DNA of 64,000 bases from an uncultured Bacteroidota bacterium. GTDB taxonomy: Bacteria; Bacteroidota; Bacteroidia; AKYH767-A; OLB10. Below are positions 36,673 to 43,149 of the stretch, piece after piece. Every line of letters starts with the position of its first letter. Position 1 is the first letter of the stretch. The stretch is from contig CAINEC010000064.1 of NCBI GenBank assembly GCA_903847585.1, positions 10,225-74,224 of the forward strand. The letters are read 5' to 3'. Position numbers and translations under genes: made by a program. The notes beneath the pieces were generated by a model. The model was not told the DNA's origin. It saw only the letters and a program-made list of their open reading frames with translations, and searched no databases.

Positions 36673-37826
36673 TGATTAGTACCACAGAGAGCAATTTACT
36701 TATCAGCAGATTGTTCCCATTCTACTTTTCACTTGATCAAGATTTAATAATTAAAGATGCGGGAATCAGTTTAAAAAAAATAATCGGCGACGATTGTATT
36801 GAGAGTGCATTCTCCGATTTTTTTACTTTTCTACGACCAGGCCTAGGAATCAAATACCATATCGATTCTATCAAGCAATACGAAAACCAGATTTTTATTT
36901 TGCAGGGCAAATCGCAATCATCCAACTTCAGAATGAAGGGACAGTTTATCGTTCATCAAGAAAACCGAACGTTACTATTTTGTGGTTCACCCTGGATTGT
37001 TTCTGAAAAAGATTTTGAAAGCTTAGGATTAAAAATTAAAGACTTTGCTTTGCATGATTCAACTATCGATATGATTCAGAATTTGCGTGTTCAACAAATG
37101 GCCGTTGAAGACTCCAATCATGTAAACAAAATGTTATTGGAAAAGAATGAGGAACTAAAAAAGACGAATGCTGAATTAGATCGTTTTGTCTATAGCGTTT
37201 CTCATGATTTACGTTCGCCATTATTATCAATCCACGGAGTAATCGATATTTTAAAACAGAAAGAATCCATTAGTGAAACAGGCAATCAATTGCTACAGAT
37301 GATTGTTAATTCCATCGATCGACTAGACAATTCGATCGTTGAAATTTTAGATTATAGTCGTAATGCACGCTTCGACGTAGAACATGTTGAGCTCGACTTA
37401 AACACCATTTTACAACAAATCACCACGGACTTACAACATCTCGCTCCAGTTAGATTTGACATACAATTTGAAACTTCTGCTATTGTTACTAGTGATAAAT
37501 TCCGATTGATAACTATTTTAAAAAACACGATAAGCAACGCTGTAAAATATCGCAAACAAAATGATACAGATTGCTTCGTAAATATCAAAGTAAGTAAAGA
37601 AGATAACTATACAATTATTCGAATAGAAGATAATGGTATTGGAATCAGCGAAAAAAGTTTACCGAAAATTTTCGATATGTTTTTTAGAGCTACTAGTAGT
37701 GTAGCAGGTACTGGTCTCGGACTTTATATCTGCAAAGAAATGATCACTAAGCTGGGCGGCGCAATCAACCTCGATTCAAAATTAGGGGAAGGAACTAAGG
37801 TTACAATTAAAATTCCTTCTAACTAA
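36672..37826 (+). CDS. Sensor histidine kinase with N-terminal HNOBA (sGC PAS-like) domain
   Basis: LFPFYFSLD.DL, MKGQF, LFCGSPW and GL.I.DFALHDS (HNOBA); H-box SHDLRSP, N-box NAVKY, DNGIGI, GTGLGL. Confidence 0.9.
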   Translation: MISTTESNLLISRLFPFYFSLDQDLIIKDAGISLKKIIGDDCIESAFSDFFTFLRPGLGIKYHIDSIKQYENQIFILQGKSQSSNFRMKGQFIVHQENRTLLFCGSPWIVSEKDFESLGLKIKDFALHDSTIDMIQNLRVQQMAVEDSNHVNKMLLEKNEELKKTNAELDRFVYSVSHDLRSPLLSIHGVIDILKQKESISETGNQLLQMIVNSIDRLDNSIVEILDYSRNARFDVEHVELDLNTILQQITTDLQHLAPVRFDIQFETSAIVTSDKFRLITILKNTISNAVKYRKQNDTDCFVNIKVSKEDNYTIIRIEDNGIGISEKSLPKIFDMFFRATSSVAGTGLGLYICKEMITKLGGAINLDSKLGEGTKVTIKIPSN

Positions 37827-38719
37827 TCTTTCTTCCAGATATTAATTGAGCGATCATCGCCTGCACTAATCAAAGTGTTATCGTCTATCCACAATAATGT
37901 ATTGACAGAATTTAAATGTCCATCATTTGAATGTTCAATACGCTGAATAACCTGATTCGTATTTGCATCCCAAATTTTTAATGTCTTATCACGACTAGCA
38001 GTAGCAAATAATTTTCTATCAAGCGAAAATCCGATTTTATAAATCGCATAATTGTGAGCAGGAATTGCATTCACAACCGTATAATCTTTTTTGTCAACCC
38101 ATCTTAAATGCGCATCTCTTCCACCGCAAAGTAAAATATCATCAGTGTAATGAATAATCGCATTAACAGAAAAACCTTGCTTCGATAGTTGATTACTATA
38201 GGTCACTTCCATCGTATCGTCATCAAAAACATAAAACATCCCTTCACCACAACCAACAAATGTTTTGTTTAGCTTTTCGTCAAAAAAAACAGAACGCAAT
38301 TTCATAGTAGAAATTTTTTGTTTGAAGATCAATGAATAATCTGCTGATGATAATACGGACAATACTCCGTCACCGCCTAATACATACACCTTCGATTTAC
38401 TTTTATTCTCAACGATAGAAAACACCCCTTTCTCATTTACTTTCAACAATCTCTTCTCCTGGTTGTTCGATAAATCGATGACATGAATTTCTCCTTTCGC
38501 CTGACCGATTAATAATTCATTTTTACCTTCCAGATAACATATTGAATAAATACTATCAGACGCTCTCGCAATTAAATTACCTTGTTCAGGTTGATCAATG
38601 TTCCATGATACCACTAAACGATCGCCAGATGCCGACAAAAATGATTTATCGCTTAATTTAATTAAATCATACACGCCACTTGTATGACCTAAACAACGAT
38701 TATGTAATTTGAATTGCAT
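37823..38719 (-). CDS. WD40-repeat beta-propeller protein
   Basis: GH...Y, SASGD, AHNYAIY, ATASRDKTLKIWD and SAGDDRSINIW repeats. Confidence 0.92.
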   Translation of the reverse strand: MQFKLHNRCLGHTSGVYDLIKLSDKSFLSASGDRLVVSWNIDQPEQGNLIARASDSIYSICYLEGKNELLIGQAKGEIHVIDLSNNQEKRLLKVNEKGVFSIVENKSKSKVYVLGGDGVLSVLSSADYSLIFKQKISTMKLRSVFFDEKLNKTFVGCGEGMFYVFDDDTMEVTYSNQLSKQGFSVNAIIHYTDDILLCGGRDAHLRWVDKKDYTVVNAIPAHNYAIYKIGFSLDRKLFATASRDKTLKIWDANTNQVIQRIEHSNDGHLNSVNTLLWIDDNTLISAGDDRSINIWKKD

Positions 38720-39105: not shown

Positions 39106-39552
39106 ATGACGACCTACACCCAAATCATTTACCAGATAGTTTTCGCGACGAAAAGACGACAGAAAACACTAAGCGCCGAAAATCGGCAACGGCTTTTCGC
39201 GTACATGGCAACTGTAATCAGAAACAAAAAATGCCTGCCTTATTGTATCAACGGTGTTGAAGACCACCTCCACATTGTATGCGACCTCCATCCTTCAGTT
39301 GCGTTAGCTTCATTGGTAAAAGACATTAAACTTTCAAGCACAATTTTTATAAAGGAAAACAAACTCTTTAAAAAATTTAATGGATGGCAATCGGGTTATG
39401 GAGCATTTACCTATACTATAGAGGAAAAGCCAAGGCTTATTCGCTACGTCGAGAATCAGGAAAATCATCATAAGAAAAAGAAATCCATAGAAGAACAAAG
39501 AGACTTTTTAATGGCTCATGAAGTGGAGTTTTATGAAAAATATTTTACCTAG
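39106..39552 (+). mobile_element. tnpA: Y1 HUH transposase (IS200/IS605 TnpA family, probably REP-associated RAYT/TnpA-REP type)
   Basis: Y.IVFATK.R, DHLHI (HUH), WQSGYGAFT, RYVENQE.HH (catalytic Tyr); no tnpB follows; REP-like array immediately upstream. Confidence 0.9.
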
Positions 39553-39668
39553 TTGCTAAAACTATTTATATGATAAACCATGAATAATAACCTTTCAATT
39601 GAATTTAATTTTTTCCGACAATACAGGTCAATCATAAAAATAAATTTGGTTATCATAAAAAATCGTTT

Positions 39669-39676
39669 TTACTTTG
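39669..39676 (+). promoter_or_regulatory. Probable -7 promoter element for the metK leader
   Basis: TTACTTTG, a variant also found 4 nt before radA and 7 nt before the SDR gene; it ends 4 nt before the GCATT core of the first aptamer's P1 strand. Confidence 0.55.
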
Positions 39677-39679
39677 CAT

Positions 39680-39776
39680 CGCATTCAGACATCATATGTA
39701 ATGTATGATACCAACCGAGCGGACGATGCAACGGTGGTAAAACGATGCGGACCAGGAGTCAAAAAAGCGCTTTGCA
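39680..39776 (+). promoter_or_regulatory. SAM riboswitch aptamer 1 (SAM-I/IV-type, lacking P4)
   Basis: P1 CGCAUU/GAUGCG; J1/2 CAGA; P2 UCAUAU/GUAUGA; P3 UACCAACC/GGUGGUA with AA/U pocket; P5 GAC-CAGGA-GUC; L3 GAGCG complementary to tail CGCUU; lies upstream of metK. Confidence 0.8.
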
Positions 39777-39843
39777 CAATAAACCCTCCCTCCTCTCGTT
39801 AATGTTACAGATTGCAGAGTACAATTTGTTCTTTATTTTTTAA

Positions 39844-39953
39844 TACATCAAGAATTATAGTTCCGACTATAATACCAACCGAGCGTATCCGCGCCACGGT
39901 GGTAAAGCGATGTGGACGTTCAGTCAAAATAAAACAGGATATCCACTTCGCTT
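39844..39953 (+). promoter_or_regulatory. SAM riboswitch aptamer 2 (SAM-I/IV-type, lacking P4)
   Basis: P1 UACAUC/GAUGUG; J1/2 AAGA; P2 UUAUAGU/ACUAUAA; P3 UACCAACC/GGUGGUA; P5 GAC-GUUCA-GUC; L3 GUAUCC complementary to tail GGAUAU (pseudoknot). Confidence 0.85.
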
Positions 39954-40004
39954 CTTTTTGATGTATGTATTGAGTTAGAAATTAAACTTTAATTCCATCA
40001 TACT

Positions 40005-41423
40005 ATGAAACAATTCGATTATTCGTTTACGAGCGAATCGGTGTCGGCAGGACACCCAGACAAAGTGGCTGATCAAATTTCAGACGCTATTCTTGATGCT
40101 TACTTAGCACAAGACCCGCATGCTAAAGTAGCCTGCGAATGTTTAATTACAACCAATCATTTAACGATTGCTGGTGAGGTGACTTCTACCGCTATTGTAG
40201 ATCCTATTGCGATTGCAAAAGAAGTATTGGAGCGCATCGGTTATAATGATTCAGCATCAGGTTTTAATTGGAAAACTGCATTCTATCAAAATTTATTACA
40301 TCAACAAAGTCGTGAAATTAACGATAGCGTTGCCGATGGAGGTGCAGGTGATCAAGGATTAATGTTTGGCTATGCAACATCCGAAGGCCCGAACTTTATG
40401 CCTTTACCTATCTGGCTTGCTCATCAGCTAATGCGCAAACATCAGGAACTTCGCGATAGTGGTAAATATCCATTCTTACTTCCTGATGCTAAATCGCAAG
40501 TCACAGTTGATTACAATATCAATACACCAGTAGGTATTAGCAAAGTTGTTTTATCCGCACAACATACTCCTGATATCAAGCAAGAAGACTTACGCAAGTT
40601 TATCATCGCTGAAATCATTGAACCTGTAATTGCAAATTATAAAGGTGAATCCGAGACTGAATATTTAATCAATCCTTCTGGAAGTTTTACTATTGGTGGC
40701 CCGCATGGTGATACTGGTTTAACAGGAAGAAAAATTATTGTGGATACTTATGGAGGTAAATGTCCACATGGAGGTGGTGCCTTCTCTGGTAAAGACCCAA
40801 GCAAAGTAGATCGTTCTGCTGCATATATGGCACGCTACATAGCAAAAACGTTAGTAGCCAACGGATATGCGAAAGAATGTACAATTCAACTAGCCTATGC
40901 TATTGGACATGACCAACCGCTTTCGGTTCACGTTAATACACATGGAACAGGTAACCAACATCCAGATACGCGGTTAGCCCTTGCCGTTAGAGCAGTATTT
41001 GATTTGAATCCGAACGGAATTATCAAAGAACTCGGACTAAAACAACCTATCTATAGTCAAACTGCTATCAATGGACATTTCGGAAATTTAGATTTCCCAT
41101 GGGAGAAAGTATCGTCTGAAAAAGCAAATCGCCTACGTGAATATTTTGAAACTGGCTACGGAACAGAGTTGCGAAATAAGGAATGGAAAAAACTTTTGGC
41201 CGCATCTAGCTTAGATAAACTAATTGAAAATTTTAATCGCGAAGTAAGAGTTCCTGCATCCAGCAGCGCACGATTTGAATATATCATTTTACTGGTTGAT
41301 GAAATCAAAAACAGAGACATTGATATTTCATGTATTACAGGCGAAAACAATTCGATTCGTTTAAGTAAGAAAGTAAAAATTGTAAATAACACCTTAGTAT
41401 ATTCAGAAGAAAATAATTTGTAA
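40005..41423 (+). CDS. metK: S-adenosylmethionine synthetase with ~90-aa C-terminal extension
   Basis: FTSESV..GHPDK, GAGDQGLMFG, PD.KSQV, GDTGLTGRKII.DTYGG, GGGAFSGKDPSKVDRSAAY and FPWEK motifs, followed by extra sequence. Confidence 0.96.
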   Translation: MKQFDYSFTSESVSAGHPDKVADQISDAILDAYLAQDPHAKVACECLITTNHLTIAGEVTSTAIVDPIAIAKEVLERIGYNDSASGFNWKTAFYQNLLHQQSREINDSVADGGAGDQGLMFGYATSEGPNFMPLPIWLAHQLMRKHQELRDSGKYPFLLPDAKSQVTVDYNINTPVGISKVVLSAQHTPDIKQEDLRKFIIAEIIEPVIANYKGESETEYLINPSGSFTIGGPHGDTGLTGRKIIVDTYGGKCPHGGGAFSGKDPSKVDRSAAYMARYIAKTLVANGYAKECTIQLAYAIGHDQPLSVHVNTHGTGNQHPDTRLALAVRAVFDLNPNGIIKELGLKQPIYSQTAINGHFGNLDFPWEKVSSEKANRLREYFETGYGTELRNKEWKKLLAASSLDKLIENFNREVRVPASSSARFEYIILLVDEIKNRDIDISCITGENNSIRLSKKVKIVNNTLVYSEENNL

Positions 41424-41455
41424 TTAATGTCAATCCTTAAAAATAAAAATTAAAA

Positions 41456-41791
41456 ATGAGAACGGATAAAATCATAAAAGAAGCAAGTGACAAAAAGCTT
41501 CTTGACTTGCTAAATTGCCTCTTAACTCGTGACAACGATTTCAAAAATCCTCGATTAATTCTCACAAAAGTCGTCTACGAACTTGCTCTAAGAAAATACA
41601 ATCTCAAAAATTTATTTACTGATGATCAGGAAGTAAAACGAGGTAAATTCTTTAAAGCAAAGCAAAACACTTTAATAGAAGATCCTAAAAGAGTAATTAC
41701 CACACAGGATATTGGAAGAAGTTTTTTGATGGCGCTCGAGTTAAAAGGTCCAACTAATGACAGACTGGGGAAATCATTTAGTCGTAATTAA
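41456..41791 (+). CDS. Hypothetical protein similar to the MetK C-terminal extension
   Basis: 111-aa ORF 32 nt after the metK stop, preceded by an A-rich leader; aligns by eye to the extension. Confidence 0.75.
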   Translation: MRTDKIIKEASDKKLLDLLNCLLTRDNDFKNPRLILTKVVYELALRKYNLKNLFTDDQEVKRGKFFKAKQNTLIEDPKRVITTQDIGRSFLMALELKGPTNDRLGKSFSRN

Positions 41792-41836
41792 TACTATTTC
41801 TATAAAACATTCTTCACCCTAAAAAAATCTTAGAAC

Positions 41837-42283
41837 ATGAAAAAATCAATCATTCTGTTGCTAACCATTCTGGGAATAGTTACAACAAGCAAAGCACAGT
41901 ATTACGAACTATCAACTCATGCTGTGGGCGATACAGTGGAGATAGTGGATTCAACAACAGTGCAAGTGCTGAATATGACTATTGGAGACATGAATATTGA
42001 AAGCGCTAAGTCGTGCAAGGTAATTAATGTGTTTCGACTACAAGAATATGCCGATGACGACACTAAACTAATTCCATCATTCATTGGAACCAAGATTCAT
42101 TTTCAAGCTACAGATGATCAATGGAATTATTTAGACCTGAATATTTATGTCGACTTACAAGCCAACTTCCATGCAAGAGGAATTTTTAATGGGAGGACCT
42201 TTACGAGATATCTAGATAATGGAAATTTATATTATGACGATAATGATGAAATGGTTCCAAATTTTGATTGGGAAATTTACTGA
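41837..42283 (+). CDS. Secreted acidic hypothetical protein
   Basis: Signal peptide MKKSIILLLTILGIVTTSKA; Asp/Tyr-rich mature region. Confidence 0.8.
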   Translation: MKKSIILLLTILGIVTTSKAQYYELSTHAVGDTVEIVDSTTVQVLNMTIGDMNIESAKSCKVINVFRLQEYADDDTKLIPSFIGTKIHFQATDDQWNYLDLNIYVDLQANFHARGIFNGRTFTRYLDNGNLYYDDNDEMVPNFDWEIY

Positions 42284-42299
42284 TTGCCTGGCATTTTTA

Positions 42300-42332
42300 G
42301 GAGGAGGAGTGGTGGTGCCGCTCCTCCTTTTG
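42300..42332 (+). terminator. Intrinsic terminator closing the metK cluster
   Basis: AGGAGGAGTGG-tggtg-CCGCTCCTCCT followed by TTT. Confidence 0.8.
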
Positions 42333-42468
42333 ATTGAGTATAAGGTTGTATATAATCTTAGTAGGAAATAATCGTTTATTTATTTTTAAGATGTACTTAA
42401 ATAATAAATTCTTGTTAGCTATTCCCTATTCAACAATTACAGAAGTATTAATTTAATACCTTAGCACC

Positions 42469-43149
42469 ATGTTAAAAAAGGTCTTACGAATAGTTGGAAT
42501 ATTTGCAGCTGCATTTTTTTTGTTGAGCATTGGGACAACTATCATCTATCGTTGGATAAACCCTCCAGTTACCTTACTCATGATTTCGCGATACTTCGAT
42601 CCAGAGATTGGTAAATTAGAAAAAGAATGGAAATCGCTGGATGAAATTTCCCCGAAGCTTCCACTTGCTGTTGTTACTTCCGAAGATCAAAAGTTTGAAG
42701 ATCATTTTGGATTCGATTTAGAGGCCATCGAAAAAGCGGCCGACTATAACGCTACGCATAAGGGTAAACCTGTTAAGGGCGCATCTACTATTAGTCAGCA
42801 GACCGCCAAAAATGTTTTCTTGTGGCAATCGCGAAGCTGGTTTAGAAAAGGATTGGAAGTGTACTTTACTTTTCTAATTGAAATTTTTTGGAGTAAAGAA
42901 CGAATCATGGAAGTGTACTTAAACGTGATTGAAATGGGTCCTGGTATTTATGGAGCAGAAGCAGCATCTCAATATTATTTTCACAAGCCTGCGATTAAAT
43001 TATCGAAAGGAGAAGCAGCACTCATCGCAGCAATACTTCCGAATCCACTTAAATGGTCAGCATCGAAACCGACTCCATACATCCGAAGAAAAAAAGTATG
43101 GATCATGACGCACATGAAGTACATCGAGCTAAAAGAAATCAATAATTAA
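42469..43149 (+). CDS. mtgA: Monofunctional peptidoglycan transglycosylase
   Basis: SEDQKF..HFGFD, GASTISQQTAKN, RKGLE, KERI.EVYLN and GAEAAS.YYF motifs. Confidence 0.96.
   Translation: MLKKVLRIVGIFAAAFFLLSIGTTIIYRWINPPVTLLMISRYFDPEIGKLEKEWKSLDEISPKLPLAVVTSEDQKFEDHFGFDLEAIEKAADYNATHKGKPVKGASTISQQTAKNVFLWQSRSWFRKGLEVYFTFLIEIFWSKERIMEVYLNVIEMGPGIYGAEAASQYYFHKPAIKLSKGEAALIAAILPNPLKWSASKPTPYIRRKKVWIMTHMKYIELKEINN

Follow-up and report, generated by a model that had tools for sequence, protein, structure and literature searches.

Within the window, the whole stretch of 64,000 nucleotides that was analysed, a single metK gene was found. Its ORF (40005..41423, with the stop codon in the span) encodes a 472-aa MetK, of which residues 8-371 match TIGR01034 with 512.9 bits against a curated equivalog cutoff of 309.4. 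The N, M and C domains of S-AdoMet synthetase in Pfam all score above their cutoffs (E = 1e-37 to 6e-63), the C domain (S-AdoMet_synt_C) spanning residues 230-368. The catalytic motifs GHPDK, GAGDQG, GGGAFSGKD and DRSAAY are intact at residues 16, 113, 256 and 269, respectively, and DTYGG is also present. The metK leader contains two SAM-I/IV aptamers in tandem (Table 1), and both match the Rfam model over its full length (model positions 1-99 of 99). A SAM riboswitch upstream of metK is a common arrangement. The proximal aptamer is kept in all five related loci scanned, and the tandem also occurs in L001, L012, L015 and L019. Judged from its sequence, the gene product is a SAM synthetase under SAM riboswitch control, and the lineage that carries it is one of freshwater Bacteroidota.

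The gene downstream of metK, ORF2 (41456..41791, 111 aa), starts 32 nt past the MetK ORF. Where coordinates of related loci were read, the spacer between the two genes measures 30-33 nt, and a terminator scan of positions 39500-42500 returned no site on the + strand. Each ORF2-bearing locus for which upstream sequence is available has the gene for an extended MetK directly upstream. ORF2-like proteins were not found away from such loci, including in a search of 3239 ORF segments with an ORF2 HMM. A gene of 133-148 aa occupies the position of the next gene, ORF3, in L001, L005, L012, L011 and L020, and profile searches gave no family match for ORF3. The window locus as a whole is a conserved housekeeping neighbourhood.

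ORF2 gave no Pfam family at E values up to 1 and no PDB sequence or fold match. Its AlphaFold2 (AF2) model has a pLDDT of 87.8, which drops in the C-terminal tail to 53 at residues 101-110 and to 37 at residue 111. The gene is under purifying selection (dN/dS = 0.06-0.26), and the tail is among the best-conserved parts of the protein (dN/dS = 0.03-0.17), with G98, P99, N101, F108, R110 and N111 invariant. The pI is 9.9 for ORF2 and 10.9 for its tail. Such conservation, combined with low pLDDT over the last ~10 residues, is commonly seen in segments that take up their fold on a partner. The domain fused to MetK has no counterpart of the ORF2 tail.

Table 1. Features of the metK locus and their positions in the window
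Feature	Position	Strand	Basis
Distal SAM-I/IV aptamer, first of the tandem, metK leader	39676..39776	+	Rfam RF01725, 42.9 bits vs gathering 41.1
Proximal SAM-I/IV aptamer, 63 nt upstream of the metK start	39840..39941	+	Rfam RF01725, 53.5 bits, E = 5.8e-6
MetK catalytic core, residues 1-381	40005..41147	+	TIGR01034, Pfam N/M/C domains, motifs
Linker, MetK residues 382-395, start of the long helix between core and added domain	41148..41189	+	AF2 helix at extension residues 3-19; segment kept in relatives
Added C-terminal domain, MetK residues 396-466, member of the 'FNREVGNxGW' family	41190..41402	+	phmmer, AF2, dN/dS
Variable MetK tail YSEENNL and stop codon	41403..41423	+	Poor conservation between lineages; last residue (91) pLDDT 40
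Intergenic spacer, 32 nt, A/T-rich, without terminator-like hairpin	41424..41455	+	Sequence; terminator scan
ORF2 residues 1-75, putative highly diverged paralogue of the MetK-fused domain	41456..41680	+	hhalign, DSSP, coinciding invariant residues
ORF2 residues 76-111 and stop codon, conserved basic tail (...LELKGPTNDRLGKSFSRN)	41681..41791	+	Invariant residues, dN/dS, pI
ORF3, 148 aa, signal-peptide-like N-terminus, co-directional, syntenic	41837..42283	+	Same-position gene in relatives

The C-terminal extension of MetK and its family

The sequence-only reading of this DNA had placed about 90 aa beyond the normal end of MetK, and the count is 91: FPWEK...RLREYF closes at residue 381 (nt 41147), the additional residues occupy nt 41148-41420, and the TIGR01034 and Pfam models stop before them. 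AlphaFold2 predicts that the extension folds as helix-helix-helix followed by a beta-meander and hairpin (pLDDT 88.5). MetKs of 469-475 aa that carry the extension were present at every related MAG or metagenome locus recovered, one broken contig (L020) being set aside, and the 90%-identity cluster of the window's MetK has 44 members. The extension is under purifying selection (dN/dS = 0.05-0.20); between L018 and the window its identity goes down to 58%, and that of the core is 83%. Because the extension is kept across related loci and is under purifying selection, it is no readthrough accident, and the unique readthrough from a lost stop codon that had been considered as a counter-explanation is contradicted by the relatives, the cluster and the selection values alike. 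It is hardly credible that loss of a stop codon left the extension behind as a relic without function, or that it is an artefact of assembly, and this explanation is effectively refuted: it can point to L020, where the extension appears as a separate 82-aa ORF, but that contig is single-run and of low quality with both the metK and ORF2 frames broken beside A-runs, all other loci, from independent assemblies, retain the single ORF, and neither the dN/dS range nor the compact, confident AF2 fold suits a relic.

Two candidate matches were rejected. P0020, at first sight a near copy of the extension standing on its own (63% identity), was regarded as an artefact or pseudogene, because frameshifts break both metK and ORF2 on its single-run contig. 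A partial match to the Pfam family DUF7516 (PF24360), with 15.3 bits against a cutoff of 27 and E = 0.022, was taken as chance. A word-index protein search, a method that misses these MetKs, returned nothing with the extension alone and one fragment with the last 173 residues. The sequence-only reading had not recognised the fusion as a described one, and no description of it was found in Pfam, NCBIfam or the literature searched; on extensions at the MetK C-terminus and on partners of MetK, that literature gave nothing relevant besides MAT2B and T3 SAMase.

A phmmer search with the extension against 1.84e9 cluster representatives returned 19 proteins of one family (E = 1.7e-5 to 7.5e-4), one of them a 227-aa fusion, and most of these matches span the larger part of query residues 8-88. 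The family is recognized by the motif ELI..FNREVGNxGW..AR..YL.AL..EF..R..D.S, and its members are mostly free-standing proteins of 77-135 aa. A further protein, P0021 (1734 aa, E = 2.5e-8), was rejected as spurious, being an Ig-like repeat protein with 12 repeated weak matches. The extension is 29-42% identical to unlinked free-standing members, and the family HMM, which contains the query itself, matches the MetK ORF with E = 5e-32. The L, F, N, E, R and D that are invariant or nearly so in the family are all present in the window sequence, as L25, F29, N30, E52, R56 and D59 (extension numbering). The GNxGW loop occurs in about half to two thirds of the family members and is absent from the MetK extension. 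On these sequence comparisons, the extension is clearly a member of a stand-alone family of ~80-aa proteins, which bears out the sequence-only reading that one domain is present both fused and free-standing, with ORF2 as a putative, far more divergent relative. MetK has gained a ~70-residue alpha/beta domain at its C-terminus, the source of which is an otherwise stand-alone, unannotated small-protein family.

No match for this family was found in Pfam, NCBIfam, PHROG, PADLOC or the PDB, apart from isolated weak PHROG matches of one member each (E at least 0.001). PADLOC profiles matched none of the extension, ORF2 and four free-standing members, and tblastn of a typical free-standing member against plasmid and phage collections gave no match in either. 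PDB sequence searches, together with Foldseek searches against the PDB (extension and ORF2 models) and BFVD (extension model), returned nothing at E < 0.9, and no fold assignment was drawn from low-rmsd partial Foldseek matches. Further metagenome loci of the family number 55; a narrower alignment was used for locus recovery, the broad family alignment containing no sufficiently conserved stretch.

Relationship between the extension and ORF2

The sequence-only reading had aligned the extension with ORF2 and described the one as duplicated in the other. As a plain pairwise alignment this does not stand, since BLASTP gave 13.1 bits, 20% identity and E = 0.87 in a one-sequence database, which is not above chance. 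The extension-family profile placed the single ORF2 sequence outside the top 12 of 160 comparisons, so that it was not distinguished from decoys, and HMMER comparisons between the two families were not significant (E = 0.14 and 8.7). These results, together with an hhalign probability of only 65-70%, speak for analogy, that is, for two unrelated small helix-plus-hairpin domains that happen to be neighbours, with ORF2 as an unrelated small gene.

At the family level, however, the alignment is supported. The two families were compared with hhalign, on which the sequence-only reading had staked its claim, and the result was significant at a moderate level. The inputs were the extension family (A2, 21 sequences) and the ORF2 family (A1, 18 sequences, at least 50% identical), and extension residues 15-84 were aligned on ORF2 residues 5-74 with P = 4e-5 and a probability of 70%, reproducing exactly the register that had been claimed. 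The register was unchanged when the extension family was enlarged to 55 sequences (P = 6.3e-5; the probability is 65-70% over both runs). The hhalign score of 31.8 lies about 10 sd above 300 column shuffles (mean 11.1, sd 2.1, max 19.4), and reversed alignments scored 14.0 and 12.7. Seven decoy families, made of syntenic genes with similarly shallow alignments, reached 10-19.9, and ORF2 scored 25.4 with only 8 sequences. The shallowness of the ORF2 family limits the diversity on which the homology is based.

The predicted structures agree with this register. At offset 10, the DSSP strings of the two independent AF2 models agree in 83% of 81 residues, including all 11 strand residues, against a mean of 45% (sd 10%) at other offsets. 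Residues L15, L19, N20, E42 and R46, invariant in the ORF2 family, coincide with L25, F29, N30, E52 and R56 of the extension family, and five of the seven extension-family columns that are at least 90% conserved pair with ORF2-family columns conserved at least 90% in the same or a similar residue. In the search of the 3239 ORF segments with the ORF2-family HMM, five proteins were returned, all of them members of the extension family and four of them in the expected register. Analogy is thus very unlikely: it would have to account for an hhalign score far above the column shuffles and above all seven syntenic decoy families, for a DSSP identity that peaks exactly at the sequence-alignment register, for the coincidence of highly conserved columns, and for an HMM search that led to the extension family only. 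The profile and model comparisons support the reading that ORF2 is an old, strongly diverged paralogue of the extension and no recent duplicate. Of the claimed duplication, paralogy is supported and a recent copy is not, since the extension is ~20% identical to ORF2 and 29-42% identical to unlinked free-standing proteins. The residues common to the extension and ORF2 families could be purely structural.

Candidate roles of the paired domains

When a domain is conserved as a fusion and the gene next door is a co-regulated paralogue of it, the pattern is a classic 'Rosetta stone' indication that the products form a physical complex. The sequence-only reading had pointed to heterodimerising partners or an inhibitor/adaptor pair as what such a pattern may mark. 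We tentatively favour, at somewhat below an even chance, that ORF2 is an accessory or regulatory subunit of bacterial MetK that docks on the fused paralogous domain. In the mechanism proposed here, the extended metK and ORF2 would be co-transcribed, and SAM levels would therefore set both via the tandem riboswitch. The MetK-fused domain would be a built-in docking site, to which ORF2 would bind by a pseudo-homodimeric contact between the paralogous domains, with one ORF2 per MetK subunit on the side of the tetramer that faces the solvent. The conserved ORF2 tail may touch the MetK core or a third partner, thereby modulating activity, product inhibition or localisation. Neither free-standing members beside metK nor tandem pairs of paralogues were found among the loci examined, and heterodimerisation would for this reason be no general habit of the family. 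The wider proposal that ORF2 and the MetK-fused domain constitute a previously unknown bacterial MetK holoenzyme, with a small subunit recruited by the fused paralogous docking domain, is possible at a greater degree of doubt.

It is also conceivable, if rather unlikely, that the paralogous domains do not bind each other but have one type of ligand or third partner in common, which might be a metabolite, a nucleic acid or a SAM-dependent methyltransferase. In that case the fusion would bring the partner to MetK, and ORF2 would compete for the partner or buffer it. Such a role would fit the free-standing members, which function without MetK and without a paralogous neighbour and several of which adjoin SAM-using DNA methyltransferases or restriction genes, and the high pI of ORF2 would go with an acidic partner or with nucleic acid. 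Against it, the most conserved loop of the family, GNxGW, is replaced by RVPASSS in the MetK extension and by RDNDFKNP in ORF2, so a shared ligand site is not evident, and Foldseek against the PDB recovered no known nucleic-acid-binding fold.

A connection between SAM supply and phage defence through this domain family is highly improbable. According to this explanation, free-standing members serve restriction-modification or defence operons, and the MetK-fused copy together with ORF2 would protect, sense or couple MetK, the threat being, for example, MetK-targeting phage proteins. Phage T3 SAMase binds and inactivates MetK (PMC8406200) and so defeats BREX (bioRxiv 10.1101/2023.02.27.530186). 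Some members come first in restriction-modification or candidate defence operons, beside DNA methyltransferases. At L030 (six contigs), the family member lies 5 nt upstream of the gene for a T5orf172 protein, which corresponds to the PADLOC candidate PDC-S57 (E = 1.4e-65) and is followed by MmeI-like and Eco57I methylases. At L052, a member lies two genes downstream of an N6_N4 methylase-Mrr fusion, and others occur near WYL regulators, AbiEi, relaxases or a Tn3 transposase, at individual loci and case by case. However, these neighbourhoods are heterogeneous, with no neighbour family common across loci save two two-member groups. The failure of the domain to match PADLOC profiles, its isolated and weak PHROG matches, the absence of tblastn matches in the plasmid and phage collections and the housekeeping character of the window locus itself likewise speak against a defence role.

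Few enzymes in biology are as conserved as MetK, and we know of no dedicated protein partners of bacterial MetK besides phage inhibitors. If the favoured complex of ORF2 with the extended MetK is real, it would add protein-level control of SAM synthesis to riboswitch control, and a widespread small-protein family would gain its first functional handle, the binding of SAM-pathway enzymes. A holoenzyme, if it exists, would for the first time show the logic of MAT-beta in a bacterium. For a small-protein family without annotation, Pfam model or structural relatives in the PDB or BFVD, the locus is also the first clue to function, and the system is small (472 + 111 aa).

Comparison with known systems

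The core of the window's MetK (residues 1-381) resembles the bacterial MetK described by TIGR01034 and PF00438, PF02772 and PF02773 in being full-length and motif-complete and in lying behind SAM riboswitches. Canonical MetK stops shortly past FPWEK and one helix, and its three-domain architecture is, to our knowledge, otherwise almost invariant. In contrast, the window protein runs 91 residues further, into what is predicted to be an extra folded domain. The metK leader is comparable with tandem riboswitch arrangements, as two complete SAM-I/IV aptamers are placed serially in one leader. The free-standing members of the small-protein family stand alone in variable neighbourhoods, never beside metK, and the copy in MetK differs from them in having lost the GNxGW loop; ORF2 is linked to the family only by profile-profile and structure-level comparison.

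The mammalian MAT-alpha2/MAT-beta (MAT2A/MAT2B) complex, in which an accessory subunit works through its C-terminal tail, sets a precedent. MAT-beta is a large NADP-binding protein, SDR/RmlD-like. ORF2, in contrast, has 111 aa with no Pfam or PDB fold match, and there is no homology between the two; moreover, docking in the window's MetK would use a fused paralogous domain, whereas MAT2A has none. Provided that the proposed role of ORF2 holds, the likeness would lie in a non-catalytic accessory protein with a tail, the tail of ORF2 being conserved and modelled at low confidence. The C-terminal tail of MAT-beta, normally disordered, inserts into the MAT-alpha2 dimer interface (PMC4107924).

Binding of the small T3 SAMase alters the activity and assembly state of MetK (PMC8406200), which shows that small partners are able to target the MetK surface. 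That protein is an inhibitor encoded by a phage, with no relation in sequence, whereas the candidate partner ORF2 is chromosomal, syntenic and, as proposed here, co-regulated with metK.

The extended metK gene and its chromosomal setting

The only metK copy in the window encodes an enzyme core recognized by the curated MetK model TIGR01034 over residues 8-371 (512.9 bits; cutoff, 309.4). It contains three Pfam S-AdoMet synthetase domains, the last of which stops at residue 368, and all MetK catalytic motifs (GHPDK, GAGDQG, DTYGG, GGGAFSGKD and DRSAAY). FPWEK is followed by the usual C-terminal helix, whose last residues, RLREYF, reach residue 381 (nt 41147); the protein then continues for 91 residues (the extension, numbered 1-91). 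ORF translation and the MetK and Pfam models bear out the sequence-only reading in its description and coordinates of this extension and of the adjacent ORF (ORF2). The tandem SAM-I/IV aptamers of the metK leader are kept in the related loci L001, L012, L015 and L019, and in L018 the proximal aptamer alone exceeds the threshold. The short ORFs called between 39580 and 39961, which overlap these RNAs, are unlikely to be genes. No terminator-like site was found on the + strand between metK and ORF2, and the spacer measures 30-33 nt wherever a related locus has coordinates, which makes co-transcription of the two genes likely.

Features of the metK locus and of loci encoding extension-family proteins
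Feature	Sequence	Positions	Strand	Description
WD40 beta-propeller protein	window	37823-38719	-	adjoins H-NOX (HNOB) gene and HNOBA-HisKA-HATPase histidine kinase gene
IS200-like Y1 transposase gene	window	39106-39552	+	PF01797, E = 3.8e-20; directly upstream of metK leader
SAM-I/IV aptamer, distal	window	39676-39776	+	RF01725, 42.9 bits, full length; metK leader
SAM-I/IV aptamer, proximal	window	39840-39941	+	RF01725, 53.5 bits, full length; metK leader
metK with extension	window	40005-41423	+	472 aa
ORF2	window	41456-41791	+	111 aa; starts 32 nt past metK stop
ORF3	window	41837-42283	+	148 aa; signal-peptide-like N-terminus; starts 45 nt past ORF2
Apparent operon	L030	167-3175		83-aa member, T5orf172/MUG113 protein, MmeI-like methylase domain protein, Eco57I-type methylase
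Member near methylase	L052	3394-5517		member two genes after N6_N4 methylase-Mrr restriction endonuclease fusion; member also follows small 87-91 aa protein
Fusion	L072	216-1001		261 aa; DUF3293 (E = 1.9e-21) plus extension-family domain

The wider neighborhood is chromosomal and syntenic, including an H-NOX-associated histidine kinase, a WD40 protein, the IS200-like Y1 transposase, mtgA, an SDR, an acyltransferase and an acetyl-CoA synthetase. Within this block, the WD40, H-NOX and histidine kinase genes, which occupy the WD40 gene and the region upstream of it in the window and positions 1-1216 in L012, look like a haem-NO/O2 sensing two-component module of this Bacteroidota lineage. The transposase gene lies in the same place in several diverged relatives (L001-L005) and is missing in L012; it might be domesticated or REP-associated rather than an active IS. 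The ORF3 position holds a similar gene in all relatives, and family searches with ORF3 gave no match.

ORF2 look-ups retrieved the relatives as independent contigs from metagenomes and MAGs of freshwater Bacteroidota; in these, the gene upstream of ORF2 always encodes a MetK of 469-475 aa with the same extension. The 90%-identity cluster of the window MetK comprises 44 sequences, almost every one of them 472 aa long. In L018, the most divergent relative, the core is 83% and the extension 58% identical to the window. Values of dN/dS lie at 0.05-0.20 in the extension, 0.06-0.10 in the MetK core and 0.06-0.26 in ORF2. The length of the relatives' MetKs, the cluster and the low dN/dS together exclude both an assembly artefact and the unique readthrough that the sequence-only reading had considered. 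On L020, a Logan single-run contig, the extension appears as a separate 82-aa ORF (P0020). Frame breaks lie beside A-runs in both metK and ORF2 (480-900); L020 is therefore a poor assembly or a pseudogene, and P0020, which the database carries as if free-standing owing to these breaks, was rejected as a true free-standing copy.

Relationship between the extension and ORF2

The pairwise alignment on which the sequence-only reading had based a shared domain is not above chance as evidence alone (BLASTP, 20% identity, E = 0.87). Two HMMER profile comparisons between the families gave E = 0.14 and 8.7, and an extension-family profile did not separate the single ORF2 sequence from 160 decoys. Alignment of the 21-sequence extension family with the 18-member ORF2 family by hhalign was moderately significant (P = 4e-5, probability 70%) and recovered exactly the register proposed from the sequence, with extension residues 15-84 matching ORF2 residues 5-74. 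Against this score of 31.8, 300 column shuffles averaged 11.1 ± 2.1 and peaked at 19.4, and alignments run in reverse reached 14.0 and 12.7. With only eight sequences ORF2 scored 25.4, above the 10-19.9 of seven decoy families built from syntenic genes, and enlarging the extension family to 55 sequences left the register unchanged (P = 6.3e-5).

When an ORF2-family HMM was run against 3239 ORF segments of 55 loci encoding extension-family proteins, it matched five proteins, each of which belongs to the extension family; four aligned in the expected register, and every match was weak alone (E = 0.36-0.54). Conserved columns of the extension correspond to those of the ORF2 family (L25 to L15, F29 to L19, N30 to N20, E52 to E42, R56 to R46, and D59 to N/D49). 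In addition, DSSP strings of the extension model and of an independently built AlphaFold2 model of ORF2 (pLDDT 87.8) are 83% identical across 81 residues at offset 10, with agreement at 11 of 11 strand residues; the remaining offsets average 45 ± 10%. Profile-profile alignment, HMM matches among decoys, conserved residues and predicted structure thus agree on kinship at the family level. The extension and ORF2 are very probably homologous, and a chance or analogous likeness, with which the pairwise and HMMER values would fit, is improbable beside these four lines. Judging from sequence, the relationship is old and diverged: identity is 29-42% between the extension and unlinked free-standing proteins, but about 20% between the extension and ORF2.

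The extension family and the ORF2 tail

An exhaustive phmmer search with the extension against 1.84 billion cluster representatives (E <= 0.001) returned 22 matches, namely 19 family proteins, a MetK fragment, the frameshifted L020 copy and a repeat protein discarded as spurious. The 19 proteins are of 77-135 aa, with one 227-aa fusion, and have in common the pattern S/D..ELI..FNREVGNxGW.SAR..YL.AL.DEF..R..D.S.I....SL..KV.L..NKLV. Pattern-based scanning of metagenome contigs gave 55 additional loci, whose products are nearly all free-standing (63-125 aa); a few are fusions, one of them with DUF3293. Further fusions, in which the partner part is without a Pfam match, occur in L042 (249 aa), L063 (347 aa), L068 (198 aa) and P0033/P0046. 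The family had no match in Pfam, NCBIfam, PHROGs or PADLOC, nor in a PDB sequence search. A confident AlphaFold2 model of the extension (pLDDT 88.5), with the family alignment as input, comprises a linker helix, two more helices, three beta-bridges and a beta-hairpin, and Foldseek against PDB and BFVD gave nothing with E < 0.9.

ORF2 residues 76-111 are without a counterpart in the extension. This basic tail (pI 10.9; full ORF2, 9.9) has the lowest dN/dS of the whole protein (0.03-0.17), and its invariant residues include G98, P99, N101, F108, R110 and N111, within the stretch ...LELKGPTNDRLGKSFSRN. The last ~10 residues are modeled with low confidence (pLDDT 53, then 37), and such a conserved, low-confidence end would be typical of a segment folding on a partner. 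Among the loci retrieved, ORF2-like proteins were seen only downstream of the extended MetK; the ORF2-family HMM found none in the 55 free-standing-family loci.

Possible function and precedents

The C-terminus of MetK leaves the oligomer at a helix-covered, solvent-exposed face. Four added domains would then decorate the MetK tetramer. ORF2, a probable paralogue encoded next door and presumably on the same SAM-controlled transcript, would be the most economical ligand of the fused domain, binding it by a pseudo-homodimer contact, and its conserved tail may in turn extend to MetK itself or to a third component. We consider such docking plausible yet tentative. That both domains instead bind a common third partner seems rather unlikely.

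A defence-linked role of the domain is at most hinted at by the surroundings of the free-standing members, which have no neighbor in common and to which metK is never adjacent. Pfam families among 102 neighboring proteins include DNA methylases (N6_N4_Mtase, Eco57I and N6_Mtase), WYL/HTH/WCX regulators, PD-(D/E)XK nucleases, Tn3 transposase, relaxases and ParA. In L030-L035, an 83-aa member, identical in L031-L035, lies 5 nt upstream of a T5orf172/MUG113 protein that matches PDC-S57, listed by PADLOC as a candidate defence system (E = 1.4e-65). An AbiEi-type gene follows the member in L057, a WYL regulator precedes the L044 member by two genes, and those of L050, L052 and L054 form a sub-group of 113-115 aa with its own C-terminal extension. 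These settings may point to variable or defence islands with an occasional tie to SAM-using enzymes. For the MetK extension and ORF2, which lie in a syntenic chromosomal block, a defence-linked role is distinctly improbable, and tblastn of a typical free-standing member gave no match in plasmid and phage collections. A functionless relic is scarcely credible for an extension so constrained among relatives.

Neither the extended MetK architecture nor the small-protein family is described in Pfam, NCBIfam or the literature found. The locus likely presents a known enzyme in a new form together with a new putative accessory protein, and the pair is limited to a narrow uncultured lineage. For docking of ORF2 on MetK, T3 SAMase illustrates that small proteins are able to remodel bacterial MetK (PMC8406200). 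The nearest parallel in logic comes from MAT-beta, which has a disordered C-terminal tail that folds into a tunnel at the dimer interface of MAT-alpha2 (PMC4107924), a use of the tail resembling the role proposed for that of ORF2.
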